Notes: a model not told the origin generated them from the sequence alone. A stretch of 62,870 nt of DNA, filler included, from Dimargaris cristalligena (GCA_003614675.1; 2 parts of 2 records of this genome joined end to end with filler, not necessarily neighbours in it); one strand, 5' to 3'. Positions 12,662-60,419 are shown, counted from the whole stretch's first letter. Translations and numbers: made by a program.

Positions 12662-14743
12662 TCATTCCGCCAGAGTCATGATTTGACCAAACGGTGTGAG
12701 AACCAGTCCTTTAGTAGGTTGCAAAACTTGTAAGCTACATTTTTCCGGCCGAGACGCCACCGCAATAGCACGAAACCCACAGGTCGGTAAGTTAAGAGGC
12801 GAGCCGTAACATTGACAGGGAACCGCTTTACGGGAGGCTGGCGAGTGATGGCAAAAACAACCAGGTATGTTGGGGCGTTTTGTCTGGGGTGAGGACGACA
12901 AAAGGGTCCCATTATTTAAGTGACTGGGCATTCGACCCAGAGTCGCGTGCATCACTAAAAAGCGATGCGTGGGAAATGAGCGCCAAGTAGGAAAGTTCAA
13001 GTCCTGGAACGGAATATAAGCCCCCGGCCGTAGGCTGTCGTCCATACGAGTCATAGTTGTGGCCTCCCGCGGCGAATGCTGTAGCGGCATGTAGGTAGTG
13101 GCCACTACCGCCAGGTCCGATTCGCGCTGCATTTGACGCACCACGTGGCATACTCTGGCATTCATAAGGGAGGCGACCGATGATGCCCGGTCATGACGGG
13201 GAAAGCCGTCGGTTTTATCGATCCAATAGAATGCCGAAATATTATGTAGTAGTAGTAATTGGTGGCGGCGCCGCAGTGGAGGTTCGACCAATGCTTCCAA
13301 GGCTAGGTATTGCTTTGGTATAGCTGGGGGCCGCCGCCGTGGTGGAACGAACCTGGGAACGGGTGGTGTAGAATCTATGGCCCAACTCGACGCTAAAGAG
13401 GGGTCGTGGGATCCCCGACGCCGAGGGGACGATCGGTCTGGGGAATGGTCTTGGGACCATGTAACAGAAGAAAGGTTGAGTCTGTCCCAGTCCGATGGTT
13501 GCGAAACGGGTAAGGAGCGCGAAGGTGCTATTGAACTAGGGTTGGGTATATTTCCGTGACCGGACTTTAGTCGACGATAATGATCCTGAACCAGATGGGG
13601 CAGGCGGCCCAGGGTGGCAATTAATTGGGTCGTGGACTGGGGTCGCAGAACCACGAGGTGACTCAGGTAAACATCGGCCATCGCCTCAGCCCGCTGGTCC
13701 AGATTTCCGTTGAATGATGCCTGGTCGTCCTGAACCATGGATTGGACCGCCCGCATTACCGGCTGAGAGGCGCGAAGTTGAAACTCCGACCGACCGAACG
13801 TCCGGGCCCGGCCACCTGGCCCTGTAGTCGCTGAAGCCTGAGGATGGCGGCCATGGGCACGGGTGAGTAACAACTGTCGTTTTATACGGCTAATTAATAC
13901 TTGCCGGAGTCGACCCATTTGGAGGTCGCCTTGCAGATCGAGTAGAATCACGGTACAGCCGCTCGTCGATATCGCGGCTGATGGGGTCGTTGCCGATCTT
14001 GGGCCAAGCAAGTCTTGGGATGAAATCAGTGAGTGGGCAATCAAGGTGTATAGGATACCTACCAATACCGGGTTGGAATAGCCCATCAATTCGATGCGAT
14101 CCCCGGGGCAGATGGTATGGGGTTTGAATAACGCTGAAGGCTTTCAGAGCCACATGGGAAACAAAAAAGAGTTTAGGGATTTAGATATCGCCCAATTTTA
14201 GCCACCAATTATTTTTTTATTAACCATTCAATGGTAATATAAATCCGTCGATAGGTAAGATACCCGATTAGGGAGACAATAAATCGGGGCACTTTATAAT
14301 AATTGACTTACAGTAGGGGATGCAGGCTGACCTCGGGCCGCTAACAGTTGAGTGTCAATCGCATCAATATCGAACTGGGCGATACTGGTCGTTGGTTTAA
14401 GGGCCCGGTATAGCTACCGAACAGAGTTATATGGCAGGGTTACGGATACCACAGGTACAATAATAGCCCAGGGCACGCGTAATTAGAAAGGCAGTAAAAA
14501 AGGCGAGTGGTCGCTGTGACTATAAACAAGACCGTCAACGGCTCATTTGGAATGCATTTCGAATAACTCGCCCACTTTATGAAGGAATGCTGCATAAAGA
14601 AGTGGGGTCGGTTTGGTGGCGGGCGACTTGAAGATGGTAGGCCGACAATATGCACCCATGGAACGGACATTTACCTGGTAGCCATCGGTACTTTCAATGC
14701 AGTTTAGAAGGTGGGTCCAGTGGTGGACGGGCGGGTCGGTCAT
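12662..14743 (-). CDS. XRCC2: RAD51 paralog XRCC2-like; exons 14743-14675, 14413-14312, 14140-12662
   Basis: Spliced N-terminus ESTDGYQ|LYRAL; PGDRIELMG..LYTLIAHSLI; VILLDLQGDLQMGRL; ISAFYWIDK matches the XRCC2 hallmark LSAFYWIDR; GT-AG introns keep the frame. Confidence 0.85.
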
Positions 14744-17167: not shown

Positions 17168-19220
17168 ATGGTTAACTCACCGGACCATTCGCTTCTACGA
17201 GAAGCTGAGACCCCATTGGACAAGCCAGTGTCCAAATCGGGCCATTCGTCGCGAAGGTCTGGCCGTGACCGCGACCGCGACCGTCAGACATCCCGCAGCC
17301 GTAGCCCACGACGACATGGGCATTCATCGGGTTCACAGGGCCGTGATCGTAGCCGCCATAGAAGTAGGAGTCGTGGGCGCCGACAGGAACGACAGTCTAG
17401 TCACCGTAGACACCACCGCCGTGACCGAAGTCGCAGTCGTAGTAAGAGCCGCTCTCCCAGCCGGCGCCATTCCCATCGGCATCGTTCTCGCAGCCGACAT
17501 TCGCCCAGTCCGGCCGGCTGTAATTCCGATAATAGTGGCGCTTCTTCCTCGGGATACGAGTCAAATGAAAGAAGTCGGTCGCCCCGGCGTTCGCGGAAAC
17601 GATCAACTTCTCGCGATAGACACCATCGCCGACCCCGTGGGGAAAGCGATGACAAGAAGAAAAAGAAGAAGACGGATAAGAAATCCCGGTCGGTTTCCCC
17701 CGGTAGTCCCGAAAGGCGTAAATTGAAAAAGTCCAAAAAGTCCAAAAAGGTAAGTATTGAATATAACTGTGGTAACTGGGGCCTGACTCTACAACATTGA
17801 CCACCATGTAAACTGAGATACTAATTCCCATACTAGTGAAGGTTGGCTTTATTTCAGATACTAAACGCAACTATTTCAAAACCACATCACATTCTATGCT
17901 ATACTGCCCGGTCCATCCTATCCAGAGTAAAAAGGACTCTTCCTCCAAGGGCTTTTCAGTCAATAAGTACGGCAAATACGGGGTTCTTCACGAAACTGAG
18001 TAAGTGTTTCCAATTGCTCGCATTTGTACCAAGTCAGTATTTATTGGGTATCTGGAAATTAATTTTATTAGTGATTGCCAACTAAATCACACCACCTTCA
18101 TATGCCAATCTACCCAATCTCGCCCCCCCCCGTATCCCGCATAGTATGAGTTTAAAGGAAGATGTAGGTCAATTTCAACCCCAAATGGATACTCCTCAGT
18201 ACCGTGCGCATTGACGGTCGTGATTTCCGTGACCTGGCTGGCGAGTGAGCTAAGCTTTGAACTAATCATCGCCAAGCCTCCATAATTATAGGGATCGCCC
18301 GAGCGGGTTATTTATTTGCCAACTCACTATAGGCGTATTGGTGACTAACTGCGTCGAATCCGGACTCACGCTCTACTTAAATTGTCTTTCCCAAACGCTT
18401 TGCTTAGGAATTCGGCCTGTGGCTGTATGAAACCAAAGGGATTCGCGACCAAGAAATCAGCACCCAAGAAAGCAAGCGACACTTCCGTGTTTACATGGAA
18501 GGTAGGTTGTGTGTAATTTTTTTCAGACTATAGTGTTATATGTGGCTTGCTGCGAAGAATTCGGCCACTACGCTTGAGTGCTCACCTCAATTAATTGTAT
18601 TCCCATACCACTGTCAATTACGCTTATAGATTTTAACACGGTTACCCTGCCTCATAAAAAGTAAGTCTCGAGGTGAGATACACCTCAATGGTACCATCCC
18701 TGTCTGGAACCCTTTGATGATCAGGAAGCTCACGGACGGCCACCTATTATTTAGCCGGTGGTTGATGCGAAATGGTCAAAGGGTTTATTCCCAACAGGCA
18801 ACGATATGTTATCAGCCCCATTCTAAGTAATGGACACTGCCCACCTCGCATACCACCATATTAATTCGCGTAATAATTTAATTTTAAAAAATAACAAAAA
18901 CCCCCGGTAATTCACACCCTGTCTATAGGTACTATGACCTGAAAAAATGGGAGGCTAAGCAGGAACTTCGCCAGGGCGGTCAGGCGACCATGGACTCGCG
19001 CGCAGAAGATTACGGTAGTTTCAATCTGTTCGAGGCGGAAAAGCAGGCTAAGCGACAGCAGCAGCAATCCCGCCCGGCTAATGCCGCACTGTCGGGCCCT
19101 CTGATCACCCGCAATCAACTGATTGATCTTAAGCGGGTGGAAGATGAACGTACTGAGGCCGACCGGCTACGCAAGATGGGATACAAGCCCAAAGAAAGCA
19201 TGGGGATCCGGTATGAGTGA
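17168..19220 (+). CDS. RS/K-rich nuclear protein with a conserved-looking C-terminal domain; exons 17168-17749, 17926-17999, 18145-18163, 18408-18501, 18630-18660, 18929-19220
   Basis: RSRSRS and poly-K exon 1; the spliced product reads KYGKYGVLHETDMSLKEDEFGLWLYETK..YMEDFNTVTLPHKKYYDLKKWE..LRKMGYKPKESMGIRYE. Confidence 0.75.
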
Positions 19221-34400: not shown

Positions 34401-35318
34401 ACAGGATTTCCGGGACCTTAGGTCAGTTGAATGAGAAACACACCAGGGTGATAAATCACTGGAAGGCGAGAAATAGGCCCAGACTTGAGGCATACCCATT
34501 TGGGGTCGCCTCCAATGCATCAACTAGCCGCCGGAAATGATATTGGTGGGGATCAAAAACTTATAAATAGACATGAGTTCGCCACCCTCCAATGATTCCT
34601 TAATATCTTATTTTGTATCCCTCTCATCCACCGAAGCGTAGCATCTGGTCTGTTCCTTCATCTATTCTTCATCCCCATCTTATCCCTTTCACTTTGCTGT
34701 GTTTCGGTGGCTATTTTTATGTGCTAGTTTTGTTGCTCATTAGTTCCTGCTACATTTAATTTTAGTAATAATCTCCACAACCCTCCACTTATCTGTCCAC
34801 TTTTCGATATTTTGATACCCTTGAAGCTGTGCTTTTTGGATATCGTATTCCTACTCTGATTTTTACTAACATTAGTTGTCGCACGAACTTAATTCACCCA
34901 TATATCAGTTCATATAACTGGCCTAGTTTCAAATTACTATAATCTATAGTTTGATTTTTTACTAACCGGTATTTATCAACTGTTTGGGTCTTCATTCCTA
35001 GTTGGATCCTTCTCGAATAAGATTTCTACCCCTAATTTCTATTATCCCTCCCTCCAATACACTCGTTATACTGGTTATAGCGATTTCGGGATTCCAAGCT
35101 TATCTATATCTTATCTTATAACTACCCAGTTATTTCTATTAATTCCAATCCACTCCGGCAGTTGGTTTGAATACTTTCCTTCAACGTTTTCGATATAATT
35201 TGTTCGTAACCACTATTTCGGATACATACTCTCCCGTACCTCCCTATAGTGCATATCCCTGAACCGATTCCGTCCATTTAGTTGTCACTCTATATATACT
35301 CGGGTTGTCACCGCAATA

Positions 35319-36632
35319 ATGCAGTTCAAATACTTTGTCACAATTGCCACACTGGCCATGGCCAGTTCCGTGGTCAATGCCCACGAATACATCACCAGCC
35401 ACTGCATTCGCGGTAGTCCCGAGGCCCAGTGCCAGGGTAAGTCCGGAGCTCCCGATTACGATAGCGCCTCCCCTATCGCCTCGGACGGCGTCGCCAGCAT
35501 GCCCCTTTGCCGTTACCCTAAGGGCGAGACCGTGTCCACTTTCAAGGCGGGTGAAACCATTTCCCTGAAAATGAACAACGGTGCCGTACACGGGGGAGGC
35601 CACTGTGAAGTGTCCATTTCCATCAACGACAAGGACTTCGTTTCCATTCGTACCAAGCTTACCAAGTGCATGGTGGACGTCGAAGGCGTCAGCTTGACGG
35701 CCGTTATCCCCGCAACCGCTCCTACTCTCGCCAAGGCCACTTTGGCTTGGACCTGGATTAACGCCACGGGTAACCGGGAGTTCTACATGAACTGTATCGA
35801 TGTTTCCATCGAAGGGGTTGCCGGCGGTTCCATTGTGGGCCCCCTTATCGTGCTGGCCAATTATCCCGTCAATGGCCCCCCTGTCATGATTGGCGAATTC
35901 GAGTTCGGTGCTGACCCCCGCGTGGATCTGTACAATAACCGTCCGCAGGTGACCCTGACCGCTGACGGAATCACCAGCGGAAGCGCTCCCGCCACTACCC
36001 CAGTGGCCGCCCCTGCTGCTACCACCACCGCCACTAGCTCTACCACGGCTGATACCCCGGATACCACGCCCACTGGTACTCCTACCGATACCACTCCAGT
36101 TGCCAATACTGACGCGACTCCTACCGATACACCGACCGATACTGATACTACGCCAGTCGCTATCACCGACGAGACTCCCGTTGATACTCCCACAGGTACT
36201 CCTACTGACACTACTCCGGCTGCTAACACCGATATGACTCCTACCGATACCCCCACTGGCACCGATATTCTTCCAGTCCCTACCACTGATGAGATTCCCG
36301 TTGAGACTCCTACTGACACTACTCCAGTTGCTAACACCGATGTGACTCTTACCGAAACCCCCACTGGCACCGATATCCTCCCAGTCCCCACCACCGATGA
36401 GATTCCCGTCGAGACTCCTACTGACACTACTCCAGTTGCTAATACCGACGTGACTCCTACCGAGACTACTGCTGATGCTACCACCGACGAGACTCCCATC
36501 GATACCCCTACCGATACTACTCCAGTCGCCAACACTGATGTTACCCCACCCACTACTACCACTACGGAATCGTCCCCTACCCCTACCACTGAAAAGCCCA
36601 AGTGTCGCCCCCGCCCCAAAGTTACCGCTTAA
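35319..36632 (+). CDS. Secreted AA11-type lytic polysaccharide monooxygenase with Thr/Pro/Asp-rich tail
   Basis: Signal peptide ends VNA|H, exposing His1; AVHGGGHCEVS; LAWTWINATGNREFYMNCIDV. Confidence 0.88.
   Translation: MQFKYFVTIATLAMASSVVNAHEYITSHCIRGSPEAQCQGKSGAPDYDSASPIASDGVASMPLCRYPKGETVSTFKAGETISLKMNNGAVHGGGHCEVSISINDKDFVSIRTKLTKCMVDVEGVSLTAVIPATAPTLAKATLAWTWINATGNREFYMNCIDVSIEGVAGGSIVGPLIVLANYPVNGPPVMIGEFEFGADPRVDLYNNRPQVTLTADGITSGSAPATTPVAAPAATTTATSSTTADTPDTTPTGTPTDTTPVANTDATPTDTPTDTDTTPVAITDETPVDTPTGTPTDTTPAANTDMTPTDTPTGTDILPVPTTDEIPVETPTDTTPVANTDVTLTETPTGTDILPVPTTDEIPVETPTDTTPVANTDVTPTETTADATTDETPIDTPTDTTPVANTDVTPPTTTTTESSPTPTTEKPKCRPRPKVTA
36251..36466 (+). repeat. 108-bp (36 aa) coding tandem duplication in the LPMO tail
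   Basis: TPTGTDILPVPTTDEIPVETPTDTTPVANTDVT occurs near 36251 and 36359, within further DTTPVANTD units spanning ~36050-36545. Confidence 0.85.
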
Positions 36633-41140: not shown

Positions 41141-41935
41141 GCTGCTAGTCGGGACACGGGTGTTAAGGTAGGCTGCTTAAACTATGATGGACTCTGTTTG
41201 AACCACTGCAAATTCGGCCCAGGATTTGTCTAAACGGCGAGGTAATAGCAAGTGGGCCGGAATGAAGACCGCCGTGATTGGAGAGATTCCCGAGGGGAGG
41301 GATTGAATGTCAATTGAATAACTAGGGTGGAGGCTCAGGTAGCGGGACCTATAGGGCCAGTCGGGCAAGCACGAAGTCAGTACAGTATAAACGATTCTAC
41401 TATGATGAATTGCAAAAGCACTAGGGTGCCAGTTAAAGTAATTGAAAAAGGTGACGATGCACCCAATGGAGTATGCCGGGGGTTTATAGCCTTGTTTCAC
41501 CATTGGCAGTGAATCGGGCTTAGGCAGCTGTGGAATTCCAGTCGAGGCCAAGAGTATCCGCAGCACCACAGGGTCCAGTAAGAAACCTCATTCGGGCTAC
41601 TGCGGACATAATTCAAATACTAAGAAAAAAACAACCTGAAAAGTTGTATTGGAAGTTGGCTCAATCACCACAACTATACTTTGGACGCCACGCAACCTAT
41701 ATAATTATACTCCATGTCCTTTCGAAACAACATATATAACCCCAAGGTCACAAATGTTAACTAAATTTATTGCTAGAACCACTCAATTCTACCAGACTCC
41801 TACTACCTTTACTTTGGTTTAAATAAGTCCTAATTAATGAATGCCCGAAGTAATTAATCAAGATATGTTGAGGCAGTCCTGAACTTTTCTTAGGTATTGA
41901 ACTGATTAAACCGCTATTTTAAAATGACCGCCGGC

Positions 41936-43450
41936 CTAGCTTGCTGGAGCCTTATACTTTAGAATGCCACGTAAAAACTCCGTATTTTTCTTTAATACCT
42001 CCGTGGCCCTATTCTCAAAGAGTTTAGGAAGATATAGGCCCAGGCCCATGTGCCCCACTTCAACCAACGTGTACTGCGTTTGTAATTGGTCTTTAAACCG
42101 GCCAAAGTCCTGGCTGCCTTCGGAGGGATGGTAAATAAAGGCGAAGCCAAACTCCAACCGGCTCGGATCCCAATACACCAAATACACCGACTGGGTCGGA
42201 TCCTCCAAGACTTTGTACATGGCCTGCCGCCGCCGCACTTCCGTCGGTAGTAGGTCCGTCTTAACCTGCGTCGGGAATACCTCCTGGATCGTCGATTGGA
42301 GGGCTTGGGAAGACAGCTGCATGGCGATTCGGGCCATGGTACCCATCTGAATGGCCAGTCGGTTCTCGAACACGTCCAGGGTCTTGAACACGGTCAAGGT
42401 TTCGACTTCGGACCGGGGTGCGGGGTTTGTCGAATGAGTGGCCGCGTTGAAATACGCCTCCAAGTCGAAGGGTTTCAGGAAAGCCTCCCTGAGTCCGGCA
42501 TAGAAAGTGACCTGATCAAAAATGAAGACGTCGTTGGTCCATCTAACGCGAATGAAAGGCAGCAGGGGATTAGGGGTGATATAGGGCGAGTTGAGTACGT
42601 CCGGGGATGTACTATGGGGTATATTAATACTGGGGGTCGACTGGGAACCGGGTGGGCTGGGCTGAAGAAGACGTTGCGCGGGAGTAGTAGTGGGAGGAAG
42701 ACTCAACCGGACCCTCTTATTATTCTTGGGTGGCAGAGGGTCGGGTAATAATGGCTGTTGGCCATCGGATTCGGCCGCGTTCGATGGAGCTGAGTCCTGT
42801 TTGTCGAGGTCCGCTCGGAGTTGGGCGCCGTGGTAGGCCGCTAAAGTTCGGTAGAGTAGAGCCTCCATGGATTGGTCCGGCGGATTTCGTACGGGCGGCG
42901 GGGTGGCCTTGGTGGGCAGCAGGGAATGTGAAATTGTCCGCCGGGGCTGTATAGTAGGGAACGTGGCACGGCCGTCGACCGAGGGACGCTTATTGTTCAC
43001 CGCCAAACCAGCAGCAACATTGGTCCAGCCAGCTTCGGTATTGGTATTGGTGGGGTGTTTCTGAGTGTTGAAAGGAAAGTTGGTCGGTGGCCCAGTTGAA
43101 CTGGAAGTGAAAGGTGGCGGCGAGTTATCGATTAAAGTCCTGTCATCACCCCCGTCGTAAACTGAATCCATCTGGGATACGGAACTGAGGGGACTTGGTT
43201 CATCCATGAAATTGAAGAATTCGTCGAAGTTAATGTCGACGACGGGTTCGTCATTGAACGTACCAATGGTACCAGAGGTGCCGGCCTCCCATGGTGGCAG
43301 GGCCAACGTTTGGCCAGTTGGATATCCGCCGCCACTACCACTGGACGATGGGTGACCCGAGCCCTGTGTAGGGAAAGGGGTGGCGATAATACAATGGGGT
43401 AGGCCCATGCAGCCTAATAGGCCAATAATGGCGAAGCGAATATATACCAT
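41936..43450 (-). CDS. Secreted protein, effector candidate A (504 aa)
   Basis: Signal peptide MVYIRFAIIGLLGCMGLPHCIIA; long disordered middle; globular C-terminus; TATATAAAA upstream near 43617-43627. Confidence 0.8.
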   Translation of the reverse strand: MVYIRFAIIGLLGCMGLPHCIIATPFPTQGSGHPSSSGSGGGYPTGQTLALPPWEAGTSGTIGTFNDEPVVDINFDEFFNFMDEPSPLSSVSQMDSVYDGGDDRTLIDNSPPPFTSSSTGPPTNFPFNTQKHPTNTNTEAGWTNVAAGLAVNNKRPSVDGRATFPTIQPRRTISHSLLPTKATPPPVRNPPDQSMEALLYRTLAAYHGAQLRADLDKQDSAPSNAAESDGQQPLLPDPLPPKNNKRVRLSLPPTTTPAQRLLQPSPPGSQSTPSINIPHSTSPDVLNSPYITPNPLLPFIRVRWTNDVFIFDQVTFYAGLREAFLKPFDLEAYFNAATHSTNPAPRSEVETLTVFKTLDVFENRLAIQMGTMARIAMQLSSQALQSTIQEVFPTQVKTDLLPTEVRRRQAMYKVLEDPTQSVYLVYWDPSRLEFGFAFIYHPSEGSQDFGRFKDQLQTQYTLVEVGHMGLGLYLPKLFENRATEVLKKNTEFLRGILKYKAPAS

Positions 43451-44460
43451 ATTGCTGGGAAATAAACCACCGTCAAGGGCTACTATGCTTAGATTTAGCG
43501 CAAGTAACAACAGAAATAAGTGGAAGCGTAGTAAAGAAATTGAAGGATTTTCTTTCCAATAAATAAATTAATAAAAGAGCAGGTAACGAACAAAGGGAAG
43601 AAGAGGCAGGGTCAAATTTTATATATACCCATCAACGCCCCTCCCTCCCCCCCCCCACCTGGTGGAGGAGAGGTGTACAAGGCAAAAATAAGACATGCGG
43701 ATTATCGAATAGGCAGGCTCCAAGGTGTAGCACAGAGGGGGAATCTTTGAACAGGGATAAAAATCACAATGTTAGCTATGGGAAGGACCATGCGGCTGCG
43801 TTTTTGGTCTGTTTGCACATTAATCGCTTCTCTCGCTTCCCTTTGAAAAAAATCGTTTCAAGACCCACCCACCCACCTCCATCATTCATACTATCCGATT
43901 CTGTACGACAGTGGGGGGTAACATGGAAAAACCACTATGGCCTGAGGGCCAGCTGAGGAGGGGAGGTTGGTTTCTGAAATGGCCGAATTTGGGATTACCC
44001 CATATTACTCGTTTTCATTCTATAAAATCATCCACTATCAACCGAAATGTGTCCAAACGAACTCCTCGGGACGGCTCTTTTGGGCAATGTCCCTAGGTAA
44101 AATGTATCCAAGAAAAAATACCCCACAACGTATTTATCAAGGGTTTGGCTGTTATGTTCGTACATGGCTGCTTTATTCGGGCTGCCTCTATTGTTATAGA
44201 GTACATTCCGCTTATAGATAGTTGGTCATTTATTGCTCCCTTGTCCTTATTCAAAAAATTCCGATATAAAATTCTAAACCACTAGTGCCGTCAAGTGCAG
44301 TGGTACACATATAGATATATAGATATAAAGATATATATATAAAGGCGGCTGTTTAGCTGGTATTTACTGGTTCTAGAGCGACACGCCGTAATGATATTAA
44401 ACACTTTATAGAAGTATAGGATAGGAAATGCGTCAAAATAAAAAAAATACCTCACAATGG

Positions 44461-46002
44461 CTACGGGGCCTCCACAATCAGTTGACCAATGGTAATGTGG
44501 TATTCCAATTGCTCCGAAGCCAAAACCACCGGACTAACTTGAATGTAGCCTTTTGTGTTACTCCAGAAATGAATCAAATGTCTGTAGCTTTCCTGAACCT
44601 TGGGGTTGCCAAACACAAACTCAAATCTATACGCTCCGGTGGACTGGTCCCGGTAAATGGCGTACAAGGACTGGTTGCCTTGGCGGATGGCATGGCACAT
44701 AAAGGCCAACTGATAGACGTATTTATCCAAGTCGCCGGGCCGGACTTTTCTCGTCAACAACGGCTCATCATTGTCGTAGTTGTTGGAGGATGTGAAATGG
44801 TGTTTCATAAAATTGGCTTTCGATGCACGAACGACCTGCTTAAACTCCTCCGCCGAGGCAGGCCCGGGAATGGTCGAAGCTGACATACCTCTCAACGGCC
44901 GGGTCGGTCGGTTAGCCCGCTGCTGATTCCGCTGGAATAGGTTGTTCACCACATAATCCTGGAAAACACTAAAGTTCAGTAGGTAGTCGCCGCTGGCCTG
45001 GGGCATCAGGCGGATGCCGGGGTAGCATTGGAGGAGGAGGTGCGGTTGGCGGGACCCCTCCCGCAGTATGGGCATAACCGGGAGTTTCGGCATAGGTGCA
45101 ATCACGGGGACTAGCCGGGCAGCGGGTCGCGGGGGCGATGAGGCTTCCCGGGCCCGTTTTGTACGAGGAAAGGAGTTGGGGCGGGCCCACGGGTACATGG
45201 GTTTGGCGAATTCCTGGGATCCGTTGGCCGAAATGGTTGGCGCGAACTGGGCCGTCGCACCTGGGGTAAACGCCGGTGTATTCTCGATAGAGGATAATCC
45301 AGTGGATATCCCCGCCTGAGTGATGGGGATGGTGTTGACCTCGTCCATAGATGGTAAGGCATCCAGAGTGGAGGCCGTCGAGAACTCCGACATGGATACA
45401 TCAGTGTGGTACTCATCCACCCCTTCACTCATGGAGTACGTATCCAAGGGCGAAGACGTGTGGTCGAGGGGATTTTTACGGGGCTTTACTTCGAGCGGTT
45501 TATCCGGCGTCTCCAACGGTATTGCGTGGCTCCCGGTAAGTTGGGCACTCGAGCCTCGCAATAAGATATCCATGGCCGGGGTCCATTCGAAAGGGACGGG
45601 CTCCGGCTTGGAAGTTACGAACCCCCAGTTGCTCGGCACCATACCCAAGGGACCATTATTAGCCGGCATGTTATTGCTAATGGGCATTTGGGGACGGTTG
45701 ATCAGGCCGGTTTGGTCGAAGGATGCCTCGTGCTCACCCCCTAAAAAATCGACATATTCCTCTAAATCCATCTGCTCCTCGGCGCCTACAGTTGGCGAAC
45801 CGTCGCTTGGGGGGACGCTGCTATCACTGGGCGAGATACCCCTGAACTGTGTGCGGTACTCGACCATATCTGGCATGAAAGCGGAGTTTCTCGTCGGCGG
45901 GCCGTAGAAATCCGAACCATGGGCCTTCAGAGCTAACCAAACGAGGGAGATCCAACACACGACCCCACTAACGCCGACCTGCTTCAGCACTGCCATGGTC
46001 AT
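44461..46002 (-). CDS. Secreted protein, effector candidate B (~513 aa), distant paralog of A
   Basis: Hydrophobic N-terminus GVSGVVCWISLVWLALKAHG; same architecture as A; shared motif QSxYxxYxDxS..F.F. Confidence 0.8.
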   Translation of the reverse strand: MTMAVLKQVGVSGVVCWISLVWLALKAHGSDFYGPPTRNSAFMPDMVEYRTQFRGISPSDSSVPPSDGSPTVGAEEQMDLEEYVDFLGGEHEASFDQTGLINRPQMPISNNMPANNGPLGMVPSNWGFVTSKPEPVPFEWTPAMDILLRGSSAQLTGSHAIPLETPDKPLEVKPRKNPLDHTSSPLDTYSMSEGVDEYHTDVSMSEFSTASTLDALPSMDEVNTIPITQAGISTGLSSIENTPAFTPGATAQFAPTISANGSQEFAKPMYPWARPNSFPRTKRAREASSPPRPAARLVPVIAPMPKLPVMPILREGSRQPHLLLQCYPGIRLMPQASGDYLLNFSVFQDYVVNNLFQRNQQRANRPTRPLRGMSASTIPGPASAEEFKQVVRASKANFMKHHFTSSNNYDNDEPLLTRKVRPGDLDKYVYQLAFMCHAIRQGNQSLYAIYRDQSTGAYRFEFVFGNPKVQESYRHLIHFWSNTKGYIQVSPVVLASEQLEYHITIGQLIVEAP

Positions 46003-47414
46003 TAATATTGGGTATAATCGCTGCAAGTAATATAAATATAGGGGTTTGGCGACTCCGTAGCTTCCTCACGAATATAGTTAGCCCGGCTTAGAATAAGCAA
46101 TAACTGTCCTTGACGAATAAGGTACTATAATTAAAGTTATAGTTGACAGGATCGACTACTGGGAGTAATTTCAAACAAAAGGGAAAAAGCAATAATGAGA
46201 TAAATACCAAGCAAGCGGGCTGTTGTTTAGTAGATAATGTAGGAATAAATAGATCGGATAAGAAGGTCTTGCAAGCGGTCTGGACGAGCGAGTGAGTAGA
46301 GGGTATTAGGCCCAAATAGTGCAAAAATGAAATAGACCTCCAGCTGACGGAAGGGGAGCAGGGGGTCGTTGGATAGATGTTTAATATGTCGGGTACGCTA
46401 CCCATGCTTTTAAATACTTGGTTTGGGGTTTGAAAGGGCTGCCCCATGAGCCACCCGACCTCTCAATCACCCTTAATGATTCAGGGCCGCTGCTTATACC
46501 ACAAGAGAGGGAGGGGTAAGATGCCACCATGGTTACCTCTACAGTACCACCCATCCCATTTAGGCAGGGTAGTGTGGTCCCGTTGGCTAAGTATGCCGTT
46601 TAAAAACGGAGAATGCCTGCCTCCAAAAGAGCGAAAATGGCATACAATTCTAGAAACGAAGGAAACCGCCACCAGATTTAACTTGCTGTGCCTCATATGT
46701 TCAAGGTACACGAAGTCCTTGAACCACCAATCGACTGCAATCCAGGGTATGCCAGCAAATACATTTTACCAAGATGCGAAGGGGGGATAGTTTGACAGGG
46801 CGGTACAGCTAGGGATACCCATTACCTTGGCCCAGTGACGGGGGGGATTTACGGGGCTCTGCTAAGTTTTGGAAGTGTGGCGGCCGAGCTAGGAAGCCCC
46901 GCCCGTGGTATCTACGGACCAATACCCGCGATGGTTCGGTTAATTAGGTCACTGTCTCTGACGCAACTGCAGCCCCCGTAGGTCACAAATGGCACTCTGC
47001 TCCTCATACTGCTAAATACTGGACTTGAGGTGATAGATTCCCTCCCCCCCACCCTTTGTGTCCGGGTCAGCTGGCTTATAAGGGAATCCACCAAGGGACG
47101 CAATGTTGATTTCCAAGTAGCCCAACCAAAAAATACACAAGGCGGGTGGAGGTGCTTCTGTAACATGCGGTTTAGTATCTCCTTGAGTGGGAAGGACGCT
47201 GCCGTGTGAGCCTAAAATATATCCGTGCTACGATAAGAGCCCCTTTTCCAGGTCTGTACAACTCAGGTGCTCCCTTGGTCACCTGTATTTTTGCATCATC
47301 GCAAGCCTCTTCTATTCCGTCCAAGGGCAACTCTGTTTATCTTTAAAGTTATTTTGGGGGGGAGGGAAAGCAGCCCCCTCATCTGCCTATCGGTGTACTA
47401 AATCACTCTCCCCC

Positions 47415-54231: not shown

Positions 54232-56203
54232 ATGATGAAACTAATTGTTGGGCTGTTAATTTTCGTTGCAGCCCAGGATATCGCCGAAGCCAGCCCCGCC
54301 GATTTATCACACGTAAATAGCAAACGTTCCCAAGGCTCTACCCCTAAGGTGGATTCAACGGTGAGTAATCCCGCCATGCATAATTAACTAAAAACAACGG
54401 CTGGTAACTGTGCTGGCGGCCAACGCTGTCCGTACACCACATGGGATGCGCGCGACACACGGTCTTTTATATAACCCATACTCCGTCTATACCAAATCTA
54501 GAGCCAGTTATATGTTCTAAAACACTCATAATACCCCCTAATATACATGTATTGCCTACCCCCGCCTCCCACGTGTCCGTATCTATTGACCCAGGTACCA
54601 GAATTGTCCGTGGAGGCAGATACTTTTATCAACCAGGCCAGTTGGAACAGGGTTTCGGCCCAGCTATTTCAGTACGCCCCGCTGGAAATGTACGATACCA
54701 TTTTATTTCAACTTCGGCTTAATATGAACCAGCCCCGTGACCCTACCCCCACATATAGTAAACATCGCATCGATTATACCGGTCGATTCGAGACTTATCA
54801 AGAATTACTCCAGTCTGGCTATCCAGTGAATAGTGATGACAAGCCCCCTAGGCACAATGACCGACAAAGCCTCGATCTCCGCGCCCTTAGTATGGCCGAT
54901 TTCACCACCCAATTCCCCATGGTGGCCCGCGCCGACCGCAACACCTTACTTGACCTTTTCGAACTTCTCTGTCAGGCGGTCGTGAGCAACACCCATCCCC
55001 CCTTGCCTGCCACTAAACCGAAATTGAAGTGGGCGAAAAAGCCCCAGTTCGACTTGTCCCAAATACCTACCGATTGGGTCAGTCCCACCCGAGTGCTCCT
55101 TACCGTGGGGAACCGTATTATTTCCACCACGCTGTGGTACTGGTACGCGCGGGCGGACGAGGTGGTGGAGCAAAGGCATGACCCGAACCTGGCAAGCTGG
55201 CGGCGACCTGATTATAAAGCGAACTTAATGAACGACCTGGTAGGTTTCATTGCCGATGCGACCAAGATCCTGACCACCAAGGTGAATCGTTATGAAGTGT
55301 TACCGGGTCCCCCGGGGCATCTTGGACGAATATCTCCAAACCTACCGGCGGTTGCTCGTGTATTTAGCCTTCACCACCACCACCGGCCCCGATGTCAGCC
55401 TCATCGCCGCTGTGGTTAAAAATAGCCAGCTGGCTCCAGTTATGGTAGAGCTGCCACCAGCCAACAACAACAACGGCGGGCGCATTCCCGTATATACCGA
55501 TTGTGCCTCCCAATTCGCCAGCATGGGGATAGAGAACTTCAACCAGGTTTTGGCGCAGTTTCCGGGCGCCAGCCAAGAGCTCTGCATGGCAAAGGGTACA
55601 AGCGGCCTCGGCGAAGCCTTTGACAACTTTTATCTCAATCTAAATGGTCACCGCTTATTCCAATTGGTTCCGACGTATGTGCTGCAGCCGGCCGGGGTCC
55701 CATCGGCCCGGTTTGCCGAATTAGAATTATCCATTTGGGCGTGGGCGGCCTACATTCACGATGTCGGTCAACACATCGCCGGTATAGACGACATCTGTAA
55801 ACCCGACATTTTTGGCCAGGCCCCGTCTACCCCCGCCGACCTGTCTATTTTTTCTGACCCTTACCCTTCCAACCCGTCTATTTTTTCTGACCCTTCCCCT
55901 TCCAACCCGTCTATTTTTTCTGACCCTTATTCTTCCAACCCGCCTACTACCAAACCGTTTACTTCCAACCCGTTTACTGCCGACCTGTCGCCTACTTCCA
56001 ACCCATCTACTTACTCCTTACCCCCATTTTCTCTCGAATCCCCCGGCAAGGCCGCCGGATTCAGGGCTACCGTCAAAAGCGCGTGCCGAAGGATATTACC
56101 CTGGAGGTCAAAGAAGAAGGAGAAGAGTACCCAGAAGCCGAAGACCCGGGCGTTCGGTTCCGAATCTTCAACCTCAGAGGATTATAGCGAGAACAGCCTG
56201 TAA
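54232..56203 (+). pseudogene. Secreted protein gene (exon 54232-54360, intron 54361-54594) with an apparent frameshift near 55275-55320
   Basis: Signal peptide MMKLIVGLLIFVAAQDIAEA and a KR site; a GTGAGT..CCAG intron joins in frame to ORF 54547; coding continues in the +1 frame (ORF 55292). Confidence 0.6.
55843..55941 (+). repeat. 33-bp (11 aa) coding tandem repeat x3
   Basis: SIFSDPYPSNP / SIFSDPSPSNP / SIFSDPYSSNP, followed by degenerate PFTSNP units. Confidence 0.9.
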
Positions 56204-56493: not shown

Positions 56494-58935
56494 TTAGTTG
56501 ACTTGACTAAGCTGTTTAAGCGCTTGCTGTTGAATCCAGTACATCATCAGCGGAATATTTTCGCTAACTTGTAAAACCCGACTGAGTTTGTCCGATTGGC
56601 AGACACGTAGAAGCGCGCCTCGCCCCGGATCATTGGCCTCACTCTGCATGGCGGTGATTGCGCCGGGCTGCACCCACACCCGGGGGTACGGATTGACCTC
56701 GATAATAATTTCCAATGCAATGGAATAATACAGCGGGGTCGGGTTACTGCCGTATTGCATGGGCATGATCGTGCTGAGAGAAAGTTTACCGGGGCACTCA
56801 GCCGTGATTTCAACAGGTATATCGTTATCCGCATTTTGCAGCAGCGCTTGCCAGTCCACCAGGTGGGCATCTGCGGACTTCTCCGGCTGGCGACTGGTTC
56901 GGTCAGCGACCATATTAAAACAGCTTCGGAATAGAGTGTTGTAAAGAACTTGTTGACGGAGTACCTATATATATATACGGGAAATAATCAATCCCGAAAT
57001 TCCAGAAAGGGTTAGTGATCCCGCGGGTGAACTCTAGAAGGGGCGGCAAGGACAAGGACTGCACTGGGCGTAGTTCAAGTAAACCAACGAAAATATCCGT
57101 TAAGATACGCAATACCCAAGGAATATATAAATATTAGAGGGATACCTAATGTAACCACCACAGCAACTTACTTGAATTACCACTTGTAGCTGGCTCGGGT
57201 GGGTAAACGGAATCCGGTGGATCAGGGTTCCGTGATTCTCCCCGCCGGTATACATGAACTGAAACCGGGGGGAATTCCCCTCGCCCGGGCTTAATTCGGG
57301 GGGAGCCGTCCACGTGAAGCTATGATGGGCCAGGGCCGCTTGGCAGTCTACCACCCCCACCGGGCTTGCGTTTTCCAGCAAAAGGGCTTCGTGGGACACG
57401 AGGCCCTCCTGGGTGGGGGGGACCAGGTTGAAGTCGTGTAGGTTGGTGTCACAGAGGAACGCCAACGACTTGGCGTAGGCTTCCGCCACGGGAATCGGCG
57501 GGGCCAGGTGGGCCACGAAACGGGCCTGGGCGGCAACCCCATTCTCAGGGGTGGCCTGAAAGTACGCCACACCGAAACTCGGAATGGCGGCGTTGGGGTG
57601 ATCCAGTGGTGGTGGGACCTGTGGAGTGGCGGCTGATCCGTCAATATCCATCGAATGCATAGTATCGCCGCCAGTAGGGGCATCGAGTTGGGTATACATT
57701 ACAAACCCATCAACACTGGCCGGTAGAAAGCAAATTGGCACTGTTGACTCTTCCACACTGATCCATAATTTGTAGAAATGGTCTACCCGATGCATTATTA
57801 TTGGAGACAATATATGGGGTTAATGATATCGGTACCAATCCAATATCCCAGAGGTAAGTCAATTAGTATAACAACTGGTGTAGTTGGTAAGACATGCTGG
57901 TTGCTATTCCCAGGTAGATGACTGGCGTATTAGCTAGCAAAAGGTAGGACGGAATATTAGGGTATACTTTAGCGACTAATATACCCATGTGTTCTTACCT
58001 GGATTTATATTTGAGACCGAGGTTGATGATGATAAGTCTGCCGAGGTCGATTCGGGGGCCCAGTACAGTAGGGTAGGGCCAGGGCGATAGCAGTCGGGAA
58101 ATGGTAACCCGTGTCCTTTAGCCATCACCTCCCGCAGGTCTCCGCCCAGTGCCGCCGATTCGGCCTCGAAGATGCGCTGCAGGTCCTTCCGGATCACCGT
58201 GACGATGCGGAAGAAGTCCGTGTGTTCGTATTGCGTCGTGAGCCGATCCAACAGCGCGAGCGTAGCGATACTCTGGGTAAAGGCCGCCTTATCGCGACGG
58301 ACCAAGTGTCCCGTTAGTGTTTGGTCGATGCGGGAGTCCGTGGGGGTTCCGGTAGCGTAGGTGACTTTCGCAGCCAACACCCGACCCCCTTCCGCAACAT
58401 CCACGTCCACTACGACCACGGCCCCGCATAATGTAACGGTAGTAACGGCCGTGCCGTTGTTGCGCACATGGGAGTCAATATAGTGGGTCATTTTCTGACT
58501 TTCGCCCACGTCCACGATGGCCTGCACGATGGGCCGGGCTTCGGTCAATGGCCGGCCAGCCTGGGAATTGAGTAGGTCGATGGCGTCCCGGAGGGCCGTG
58601 GTGGTATTCCGGGCGGACGCTAAGATTCGGGATTCTTCTTTGAGGGAATTGTACAGCTTGCGAAGGATGGTATTGGACGTGGTCATGTTAAACGCCTCTG
58701 AGGTCAGGGTACGGTCCTTAAAGGACTGGATGGCCTGGCGGAGTTGTTGGACCGATTTGGTGAATTCGCCTTGGACGGCGTCAATATTGATGGGGCCGAG
58801 GGGGTGCATTTGCCCCTGGCTGGTCAGAGCCAAGGCCGGCGATGAAAATTGCCAGGCGCCCGACAATTGGCGAAGGGATCGCTCCAATTGGTCAAGGGAT
58901 TCTTGGACTTTCTGGGGCGGGGGATCGGAGGCCAT
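56494..58935 (-). CDS. MED1: Mediator subunit Med1; exons 58935-57999, 57782-57172, 56964-56494
   Basis: TVTLCGAVVVVDVDV..KVTYA; GHGLP; FVAHLAPPIPV; IPFTHPSQLQVVIQ|VLRQQVLYNTLFRSCF. Confidence 0.85.
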
Positions 58936-60419
58936 GGGGAGGAATCGGGAAACTTAATTAATGAGTAAATGAAGGCAGAGTATATGGAAGAGAAATGTGT
59001 GAGAAATGGAACTGAGCATGCTGGAAGAAAGGCTCATTGTTGGAGCCTTATTTAATTTGAAGCACAGCCAATGGAATGGAAATGCATATAGATGAGAGGT
59101 CTGTTCAAGGGTGGCCCAAAATTGGTTGGAGCTCCATTATACTGTTAATACTAGTGGTGGGTATGGCTGCTGTGATATTGATCCAAGTGGTGAACATTAA
59201 TTGGGTTATTAGCCCACTTGTGTATATGTTTATGGCCTGGCCAACTATATTATTGATATTACCAGATTTGTCCGGATCTGTCTAATCACTAGTTGCTTGT
59301 TCAAGCAGAGGGTTATTAAACCGATGTTATTCAATATTGCTAACTAGTATTTCCCTCTTTACTTTTACTCGCATAAAACCTGTAATAGTCTACTAAATCA
59401 AGTCTGCGCCCAAAATGTTCGACTAATGGATTATCTAGAATGTCCGCCGACGATAGAAAACTACCTTTTTCTGGATCCCTTCCACTACAACCACAATGAG
59501 TACGCGCAGTCACGAAATATACCAATGCCCAAGCTCGTACATAAGGTACCCCCAATTGACGCTCGATATTCTTATAGCACCTACTTTGCTTACTATAGCT
59601 CACATTTCCCCCCAAATTCGTTAGTCACCTTGGATCGATAAAGCAAATTCGGGTATATCTAAATCCGTAGTTTATTATTGTACAGAAACGGCTACGGACT
59701 TGCTGTCTCACGAACTACACCCAATTACGAACGATAAAAATATTACTAGCCCCTTTGGTTTTTACATTCAACGTATCAACCACGTATTCGACATATGGCA
59801 GTGGAGATCAGATAATAAACCGTAACTGCCAACAACGCGTAGAATCTCTTCCCCCTTCACAACACCGCCCATATTACCTACTTTGGAATCCATCTCATGG
59901 TAAACGAACCCCGACCTGGCTCTACCAATCTCCCTGCCTACTATTTCTCGCAAAACAAACCAAGACCAATCATTGGCAACATCGCCCCTCTCCTCACCCT
60001 TCCCCTTGAAACCTTATAGGTCGACATCAACTACCATCAGCAGATAATTTATCCCTTTCCTGTGGATCCGTGGCCTACATATTTTTCTACCTCCACCAAC
60101 CTCCCATCCGAATGTTTTCCGCTCCACTCCCCTTTTAAGTAGAGGCGATTCAATTCGTGAAACACTCCCGCTCATAGTTGGAAGCCTTCTCTCAGATGGT
60201 ACTTAACGGGGGAACCAGGTTACTATGCTGATTGTCTGTTCTCAATAGACAGGTATGGGTAGGGGGATTGATGGTGAAGCTGTTTTCTCCACTATCCGAC
60301 CTTTCCGAAATTTATTTAAATCATCTTATGTAACGCACATACCCGGAACGACGGGAGCCACTCTCTCCGGTCCCCCCAGCCTATCTTATTAGGTTCCCTT
60401 ATATTTGGCATCTGCCTGA

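Follow-up and report, generated by a model that had tools for sequence, protein, structure and literature searches.

Organization of the two genes

The stretch of DNA analysed here, referred to as the window, comprises 62,870 nucleotides (filler included) from Dimargaris cristalligena (GCA_003614675.1) and consists of two parts of the genome joined end to end. Between positions 41,936 and 46,002 it carries two open reading frames (ORFs) on the minus strand, both without an intron: ORF A (41936..43450), which encodes a protein of 504 amino acids, and ORF B (44461..46002), which encodes one of 513 amino acids, each followed by a stop codon and with a spacer of 1010 bases between them. An earlier note on this locus had described two neighbouring, co-oriented and uninterrupted ORFs of about 500 amino acids, and had interpreted them as tandem paralogues built like transcription factors and destined for the nucleus of another cell. 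The description of the ORFs agrees with what we found, as does the order of modules common to both proteins, namely a hydrophobic N-terminus, an acidic segment, a stretch rich in Pro, Ser and Thr, a KRxR motif and a less disordered C-terminus. The four motifs named at that time, DINFDEFFNFMDE (43199-43237) and PKNNKRVRL (42704-42730) in A and MDLEEYVDFLGGE (45733-45771) and PRTKRAR (45148-45168) in B, all lie on the minus strand exactly where they had been placed. In the first ca. 280 residues of A and B (numbered from M1 throughout), the fraction of Pro, Ser, Thr, Gly, Asn and Gln is 0.30-0.66 per 50-residue segment and hydrophobic residues are scarce; Ser, Thr and Pro together make up 0.32-0.36 of the N-terminal regions, and no repeats were seen in the linker of either protein. 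The last ca. 220 residues have an ordinary globular composition.

Both ORFs are real genes with native codon usage. With six Pfam-supported housekeeping ORFs of the window as the training set for codon-usage log-odds, the annotated frame was the best of the six frames for A, for B and for each half of each, with scores of 0.119 (A) and 0.147 (B), compared with -0.10 to -0.58 for the other frames and 0.129-0.337 for the six reference ORFs. In addition, both frames are open in a second isolate (run X5), in which a single contig spans positions 41700-46300.

C-terminal domains and search for relatives

The C-terminal domains, residues 297-504 in A (41939..42562, minus strand) and 327-513 in B (44464..45024, minus strand), are less disordered in composition and have an unrecognized fold. 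Their isoelectric points (pI) are 6.3 in A, which is neutral and not basic, and 9.7 in B (residues 290-513), which is basic. Judged by sequence searches, A and B appear to be orphans. The counterpart of A is the NCBI hypothetical protein H4R33_003758 from Dimargaris cristalligena, with 99% identity, and a word-indexed protein search with A gave no other match at E<=0.001 among 8000 scored candidates; among the 5314 candidates of the corresponding search with B, its own sequence was the sole match, and residues 290-513 of B likewise retrieved only their own sequence at E<=10 among 401 candidates. An exhaustive phmmer search with residues 280-504 of A against 1,835,955,588 representative proteins returned, at E<=0.001, A's own counterpart only, B being absent from the matches. 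No Pfam family matched A or B at E<=1, and neither protein had a match among the PDB sequences at E<=1. When four segments were searched against Pfam at E<=10, three had no family and one had a sub-threshold match to glycosyltransferase family 92 (GT92, PF01697). This match, to the C-terminal domain of B, was rejected as a chance result (E=0.09; 12.8 bits against a cut-off of 23), A being unmatched.

Structural comparison gave no further relatives. The single-sequence AlphaFold2 models of the C-terminal domains were unusable, with a mean predicted local distance difference test (pLDDT) score of 34.0 for A and 33.4 for B and values below 50 in all residues (225/225 and 224/224, respectively), and these models say nothing about a DNA-binding fold. 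The ESM Atlas held no usable feature match for A or B; the Atlas's own models had pLDDT values of 0.32 and 0.35, and their structural neighbours (template modelling (TM) scores of at most 0.34, kinases and others, and of at most 0.29) were discarded as noise. The earlier note had not recognized the C-terminal domain, and it is equally unrecognized by Pfam, by PDB and by any usable match in the Atlas; nor did Pfam or PDB reveal a clear match to a known extracellular enzyme. The architecture resembling that of a transcription factor is not supported, as no DNA-binding domain was found in the Pfam and PDB sequence searches of A and B.

Relationship between A and B

At the level of the whole window, tblastn with A and B gave no cross-match at E<=10 and no further copies of either gene. 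BLASTP of A against B gave a single block of 30 residues (A411-440 and B435-464; 9/30 identical; E=0.019), and a local hhalign comparison gave P=0.0057 over 41 columns. The region concerned, residues 401-441 of A (42128..42250, minus strand) and 425-465 of B (44608..44730, minus strand), is the sole block with detectable similarity; in A it is predicted to form a helix followed by a beta-hairpin YLVYWDPSRLEFGFAFIY, and its counterpart in B is indicated by BLASTP, hhalign and secondary structure alike.

Alignment scores were compared with those of 500 shuffles made either within 20-residue windows, which keeps the local composition, or over the full sequence. For the C-terminal domains, the observed global score was reached by 3/500 shuffles within windows and by 0/500 full shuffles, and the local score was reached by 3/500 and 10/500, respectively, and by 13/1000 shuffles in a separate run. 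For the N-terminal halves, the corresponding numbers were 394/500 and 131/500 for the global score and 346/500 and 293/500 for the local score, i.e. at chance level, and these halves have their layout in common and nothing more. The last ca. 100 residues scored above all shuffles (0/500), a result given no weight as this segment was chosen after the alignment had been seen. When all of A was compared with all of B in ungapped 15-residue windows, the two best were both close to the main diagonal (offsets of +24 and +10). In addition, the secondary structures taken from the AlphaFold models (low-confidence and independently made) are collinear under the sequence alignment, in the order helices, beta-hairpin, helix and second hairpin; they agree at 58 of the 137 structured aligned positions, whereas circular shifts averaged 32 matches, never exceeded 48 and in no case (0/214) reached 58.

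Five direct and two inverted short repeats are present in 41500-47200, none of which links A to B, so that no trace of the duplication is left at the DNA level. When adjacency, common strand, similar length and absence of introns are added to the C-terminal similarity, descent of A and B from a common ancestor appears likely. The earlier proposal of tandem paralogues thus has partial support, which comes from the C-terminal ca. 220 residues, where the shuffles rarely reach the observed scores and the secondary structures are collinear, and not from the N-terminal halves. One of the pairings on which it had drawn, LPFIRV of A with YPGIRL of B, was not recovered, the aligner pairing YAGLR of A with YPGIR of B instead.

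N-terminal hydrophobic segments and start codons

Each protein has one strongly hydrophobic stretch, located at the N-terminus, and no second one. By the usual rules (hydrophobicity and the -3/-1 rule only), these N-termini look like secretion signals. Specifically, residues 1-23 of A (43382..43450, minus strand) resemble a signal peptide and consist of MVYIR, the core FAIIGLLGCMGL and then PHCIIA↓TP, whereas residues 1-29 of B (45916..46002, minus strand), which resemble either a signal peptide or a signal anchor, consist of M(TM)AVLK, a core of ca. 17 residues and KAHG↓SD (arrows, putative cleavage sites). Both have one basic residue ahead of the core and small residues at -3/-1 (IIA↓T in A and AHG↓S in B), and the core of A is short, with ca. 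12 residues ahead of Pro-His.

A TATA-like box (43617..43627, minus strand), possibly part of the promoter, is situated ca. 170 nt upstream of the first ATG of A, with no ATG between them. M1 of A is thus the first ATG past this box, and it has an A at -3 and a G at +4, a strong Kozak context; the M15 codon has a T at -3. The start-codon context therefore favours keeping the hydrophobic segment in A, as far as can be judged from sequence. In B, the context of M3 is the better one; it is the start of the database copy (P0004), and the hydrophobic core is retained from either start, M1 or M3. Upstream of the TATA-like box, at position 43646, a homopolymer tract (a G run on the minus strand) is one C longer in the second isolate. 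A membrane-tethered transcription factor, mostly cytosolic but with its N-terminus outside, was considered and dropped, as the residues after the hydrophobic segment carry no surplus of positive charge.

Acidic segments and the KRxR motif

The most acidic 40-residue segments are residues 64-103 in A (43142..43261, minus strand; net charge -11, seven W/F/Y/L residues), which hold DINFDEFFNFMDE, and residues 57-96 in B (45715..45834, minus strand; net charge -11, five W/F/Y/L residues), which hold MDLEEYVDFLGGE. In agreement with the earlier note, both correspond in composition and in their disordered context to the description of an acidic activation domain. An acidic, aromatic-rich patch is by itself weak evidence for such a domain; acidic-hydrophobic patches are frequent in disordered regions, and in the shuffle test of the N-terminal halves the patches of A and B aligned no better than chance. 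A reading of EFFNFMD in A as an FFAT-like motif was considered and dropped, B having no good counterpart.

The second motif, KRVR in A (residues 245-248; 42707..42718, minus strand) and KRAR in B (residues 282-285, inside RTKRAR; 45148..45159, minus strand), directly precedes the less disordered C-terminal ca. 220 residues in both proteins. The pattern K[KR]x[KR] occurred in 9.0% (A) and 11.3% (B) of 2000 shuffles, and its presence in both proteins at an equivalent position of the layout makes it mildly non-random. In the second isolate, the replacement V247A turns KRVR of A into KRAR, with K-R-x-R kept. As a nuclear localization signal (NLS), the motif is a weak candidate: it has three basic residues and fits the loose pattern K-K/R-x-K/R. 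It does not match the monopartite patterns KR[K/R]R and K[K/R]RK given in PMC9645283. The monopartite NLS of the earlier note is therefore present as a motif and compatible with the loose pattern, but it departs from the stricter patterns and may equally be a processing site.

Kexins accept a basic residue at P4, and the RTKR of B, a candidate kexin/furin-type site, has one. According to PMC8528282, the site cut in pro-domain processing has an invariant Arg at P1 and a preference for Lys at P2, and pro-domains have no secondary structure and were searched for as disorder-promoting residues ahead of KR, RR or LxxR. A disordered N-terminal region ending in KR, the feature by which effectors with a Kex2-processed pro-domain (K2PP) were searched for, is found in both proteins, with KR at 245-246 in A and at 282-283 in B. 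Were the proteins to enter the secretory pathway, KR after a disordered region would suit a kexin (Kex2) pro-domain site just as well as an NLS. The pI of the region ahead of KR is 4.8 in A and 4.4 in B and that of the region after it is 8.1 and 9.7, respectively, a charge split that fits a pro-protein.

Differences between isolates

Over the region spanned by the contig, the second isolate differs from the window at 16 positions and by one inserted base. Nine of the differences are in A (1515 bases), two in B (1542 bases) and five, together with the insertion, in the spacer (1010 bases), with none in 534 flanking bases. Seven of the nine differences in A are nonsynonymous and two are synonymous, giving a ratio of nonsynonymous to synonymous changes per site (pN/pS) of 1.12; the NCBI model of the A counterpart (protein P0003) carries the identical seven replacements. 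In B, one of the two differences is nonsynonymous. The probability of at least 7/9 nonsynonymous differences is 0.001, 0.020, 0.075 and 0.62 for omega values of 0.1, 0.2, 0.3 and 1, respectively. With 7/9 differences being nonsynonymous, there is no detectable purifying selection on A between the isolates. If, however, the duplication that gave rise to A and B is ancient, their frames have been open through a very long divergence, which would need selection. Open frames combined with no detectable constraint form a pattern that would be expected of fast-evolving host-interaction genes, although a dispensable gene gives identical numbers. The spacer also contains a TA-rich simple repeat at 44302-44344, near which the contigs of another data set (run X1) break, the pieces having loose ends at 44164-44241.

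Interpretation of the gene pair

We tentatively favour the possibility that A and B are lineage-specific, fast-evolving secreted pro-proteins of the effector type. The genes, restricted to one species of haustorial mycoparasite, would have formed a tandem pair very long ago and diverged strongly since, and each protein would have four parts: a cleavable signal peptide, an acidic and disordered region of ca. 220-255 residues rich in Ser, Thr and Pro, a dibasic KRxR site and a C-terminal alpha/beta domain of ca. 220 residues. Kexin may cut after KR in the Golgi, which would be the most economical route of maturation, and cleavage would release the neutral-to-basic C-terminal domain from its acidic pro-region; the mature proteins may then exert their effect at or inside the fungal host. 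The Dimargaritales are described in PMC3734964 as haustorial mycoparasites of Mucorales and Ascomycota, and a mycoparasitic order with haustoria provides a biological setting for the delivery of proteins to another cell. So read, the pair belongs to an ordinary class, the orphan candidate secreted effectors that are common in parasitic fungi.

Several points weigh against this reading. With regard to the relationship of the pair, hhalign assigned a probability of just 6.4%, the full-length local score was reached by 112/500 shuffles within 20-residue windows (24/500 full shuffles) and is not significant under local-composition shuffling, and the predicted structures disagree over the last 40-50 residues, with a helix in A and strands in B. 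With regard to secretion, the core of ca. 17 residues in B could instead act as a signal anchor that is not cleaved. In addition, the NCBI model P0003 of the A counterpart begins at M15, without the hydrophobic core; as the second isolate shows no DNA difference there, this start was the annotator's choice. The mature A protein would have neither Cys nor an N-glycosylation sequon, which is unusual for an extracellular protein, and its pN/pS of about 1 also fits a dispensable gene. With regard to processing, the P4 residue of A is Asn and not aliphatic, and the putative pro-regions of ca. 220-255 residues are much longer than known Kex2 pro-domains. The KR of B is at 55% of the length of the protein, and the published screen (PMC8528282) took the first half of proteins only.

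Three other explanations have to be weighed against that of secreted pro-proteins. A and B may stay with the parasite cell, either held by a type II signal anchor or retained in the wall, with an O-glycosylated stalk rich in Ser, Thr and Pro and a lumenal or surface C-terminal domain. The core of B with Lys on either side, the Ser+Thr+Pro fraction of 0.32-0.36 in the N-terminal regions and three N-glycosylation sequons in B are consistent with this, as is the GT92 match of the C-terminal domain of B, sub-threshold and at noise level (E=0.09). The short core of A is, however, as in cleaved signals; moreover, both proteins lack a second hydrophobic segment and a C-terminal tail resembling that for glycosylphosphatidylinositol (GPI) attachment, A has neither a sequon nor the GT92 match, the linkers are without repeats, unlike typical wall mucins, and the strong acidity and the aromatic patch would be left unexplained. 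We regard retention at the parasite cell as unlikely. A somewhat lower probability is given to the alternative that the genes are young or decaying orphans with little or no function, weakly or not transcribed and drifting neutrally, their modules being effects of composition. The 7:2 ratio in A equals the neutral expectation (76% nonsynonymous sites), single nucleotide polymorphisms are about as dense in A (9/1515 bases) as in the intergenic spacer (five plus the insertion in 1010 bases), the protein searches found no relatives, and neither AlphaFold nor the ESM Atlas gave a confident fold. Against this, neither isolate has a break in the 504-codon or the 513-codon frame, the correct frame of each gene shows native codon usage, B has just two differences in 1542 bases and, if the two are ancient duplicates, selection would have been needed to keep their frames open.

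The explanation closest to the earlier note is that the proteins are secreted and taken into host hyphae, where KRxR would bring them into the nucleus, the C-terminal domain would bind DNA or chromatin and the acidic-aromatic patch would activate host transcription. The N-termini resemble signals, a segment with a net charge of -11 and five to seven W/F/Y/L residues is present at a corresponding position in both proteins, K[KR]x[KR] is found in both (in 9-11% of shuffles each) and survives V247A, the Cys-poor mature proteins are compatible with a reducing compartment, the C-terminal domain of B is basic (pI 9.7), and the order to which the organism belongs forms haustoria. Fungal secreted nuclear effectors that reprogramme host transcription also exist, for example, MoHTR1/2 (PMC7672089, PMC9645283). 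However, Pfam and PDB searches found no DNA-binding or other domain, the C-terminal domain of A is neutral (pI 6.3), KRVR and KRAR fall outside the stricter NLS patterns (PMC9645283) and double as a kexin site (PMC8528282), there is no sequence conservation between the N-terminal halves, and acidic-hydrophobic patches are commonplace in disordered regions. The activator claim rests on two short motifs, both of which have a simpler reading, and it is very improbable; that a mycoparasite injects large disordered activators into host nuclei, with a C-terminal domain of a new type targeting DNA or chromatin, is more improbable again. What stands of the proposed nucleus-targeted effectors are the genes themselves, real, adjacent and probably related in their C-terminal domains, but not a recognizable DNA-binding domain or a basic C-terminal domain in A. 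None of the outcomes named in the earlier note as refuting its proposal was observed.

Other features of the window

The other ORFs of the window include those for pieces of ABC transporters, an arrestin-domain protein, a uridine kinase/uracil phosphoribosyltransferase, a WD40 protein, a cytidylyltransferase and the Mediator subunit Med1. As these neighbours are ordinary cellular genes, the pair lies in no obvious effector island. Med1 extends over two ORFs at 57100-58953 (minus strand; PF10744 positions 21-151 and 271-410), which presumably are one gene with an intron. Similarly, two overlapping ORFs at 54532-56203 (plus strand; 295 and 305 amino acids), with no Pfam match and with repeats such as PSNPSIFSDP in the C-terminal part, probably belong to a single gene that has an intron or a frame change. 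The ORF at 35250-36632 (plus strand) has a signal-like N-terminus, MQFKYFVTIATLAMASSVVNA↓HEY..., a long C-terminal run of near-repeats rich in Thr, Pro and Asp, TPTDTTPVANTD..., and no Pfam match; its His just past the likely cleavage site is reminiscent of secreted proteins that bind copper or resemble lytic polysaccharide monooxygenases. An ORF at 17168-17800 (plus strand) is extremely rich in Arg/Ser dipeptides and resembles an RS-domain protein. A 474-residue ORF at 12662-14086 (minus strand), with no Pfam match and no tblastn match to A or B, is possibly another lineage-restricted gene.

Comparison with known systems and significance

In layout, A and B resemble the K2PP effectors SnTox3, ToxA and SIX1/4/6 (PMC8528282), which have a signal peptide, a disorder-promoting region ending in KR and a functional domain. 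A and B differ in that their mature parts, of ca. 220-260 residues, are nearly free of Cys, that they have no relation to these effectors in sequence or fold and that their cleavage is putative. A further difference is the putative pro-region of ca. 220-255 residues, far longer than the known pro-domains. The acidic stretch with interspersed Phe, Tyr and Leu in a disordered context is reminiscent of the acidic activation domains of Gcn4 and VP16, but the patches of A and B are not attached to a detectable DNA-binding domain, align with each other at chance level and belong to proteins not known to be nuclear. Oomycete RXLR-dEER effectors, whose genes are often in tandem, have a signal peptide, an acidic motif some tens of residues further on and a fast-evolving C-terminal domain; A and B are alike in their signal peptide-like start, downstream acidic motif, fast-evolving C-terminus and tandem arrangement, but have no RXLR motif, a much longer linker and an unrelated lineage. 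The MoHTR proteins are reportedly small C2H2 zinc-finger proteins. In idea, MoHTR1/MoHTR2 (PMC7672089) and CgEP1 and Mlp124478 (PMC9645283) are also similar, combining a signal peptide with a basic nuclear-import motif in a biotrophic parasite. A and B, in contrast, have no zinc finger or other DNA-binding domain in Pfam searches, are ca. 500 residues long with the first half mostly disordered, would meet a host that is a fungus and not a plant, and enter nuclei only putatively.

None of the papers listed in searches of the literature has Dimargaris effectors as its topic, and the manipulation of fungal hosts by haustorial mycoparasites among the early-diverging fungi is almost unstudied. The C-terminal domain of A is without a detectable relative among 1.84 billion representative proteins. 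Nuclear activators injected from fungus to fungus would, if true, be a eukaryote-to-eukaryote counterpart of the bacterial transcription activator-like (TAL) effectors. Lineage-restricted and rapidly changing genes with putative secretion signals, such as A and B, are a reasonable entry point to work on the interaction between mycoparasites and their hosts.

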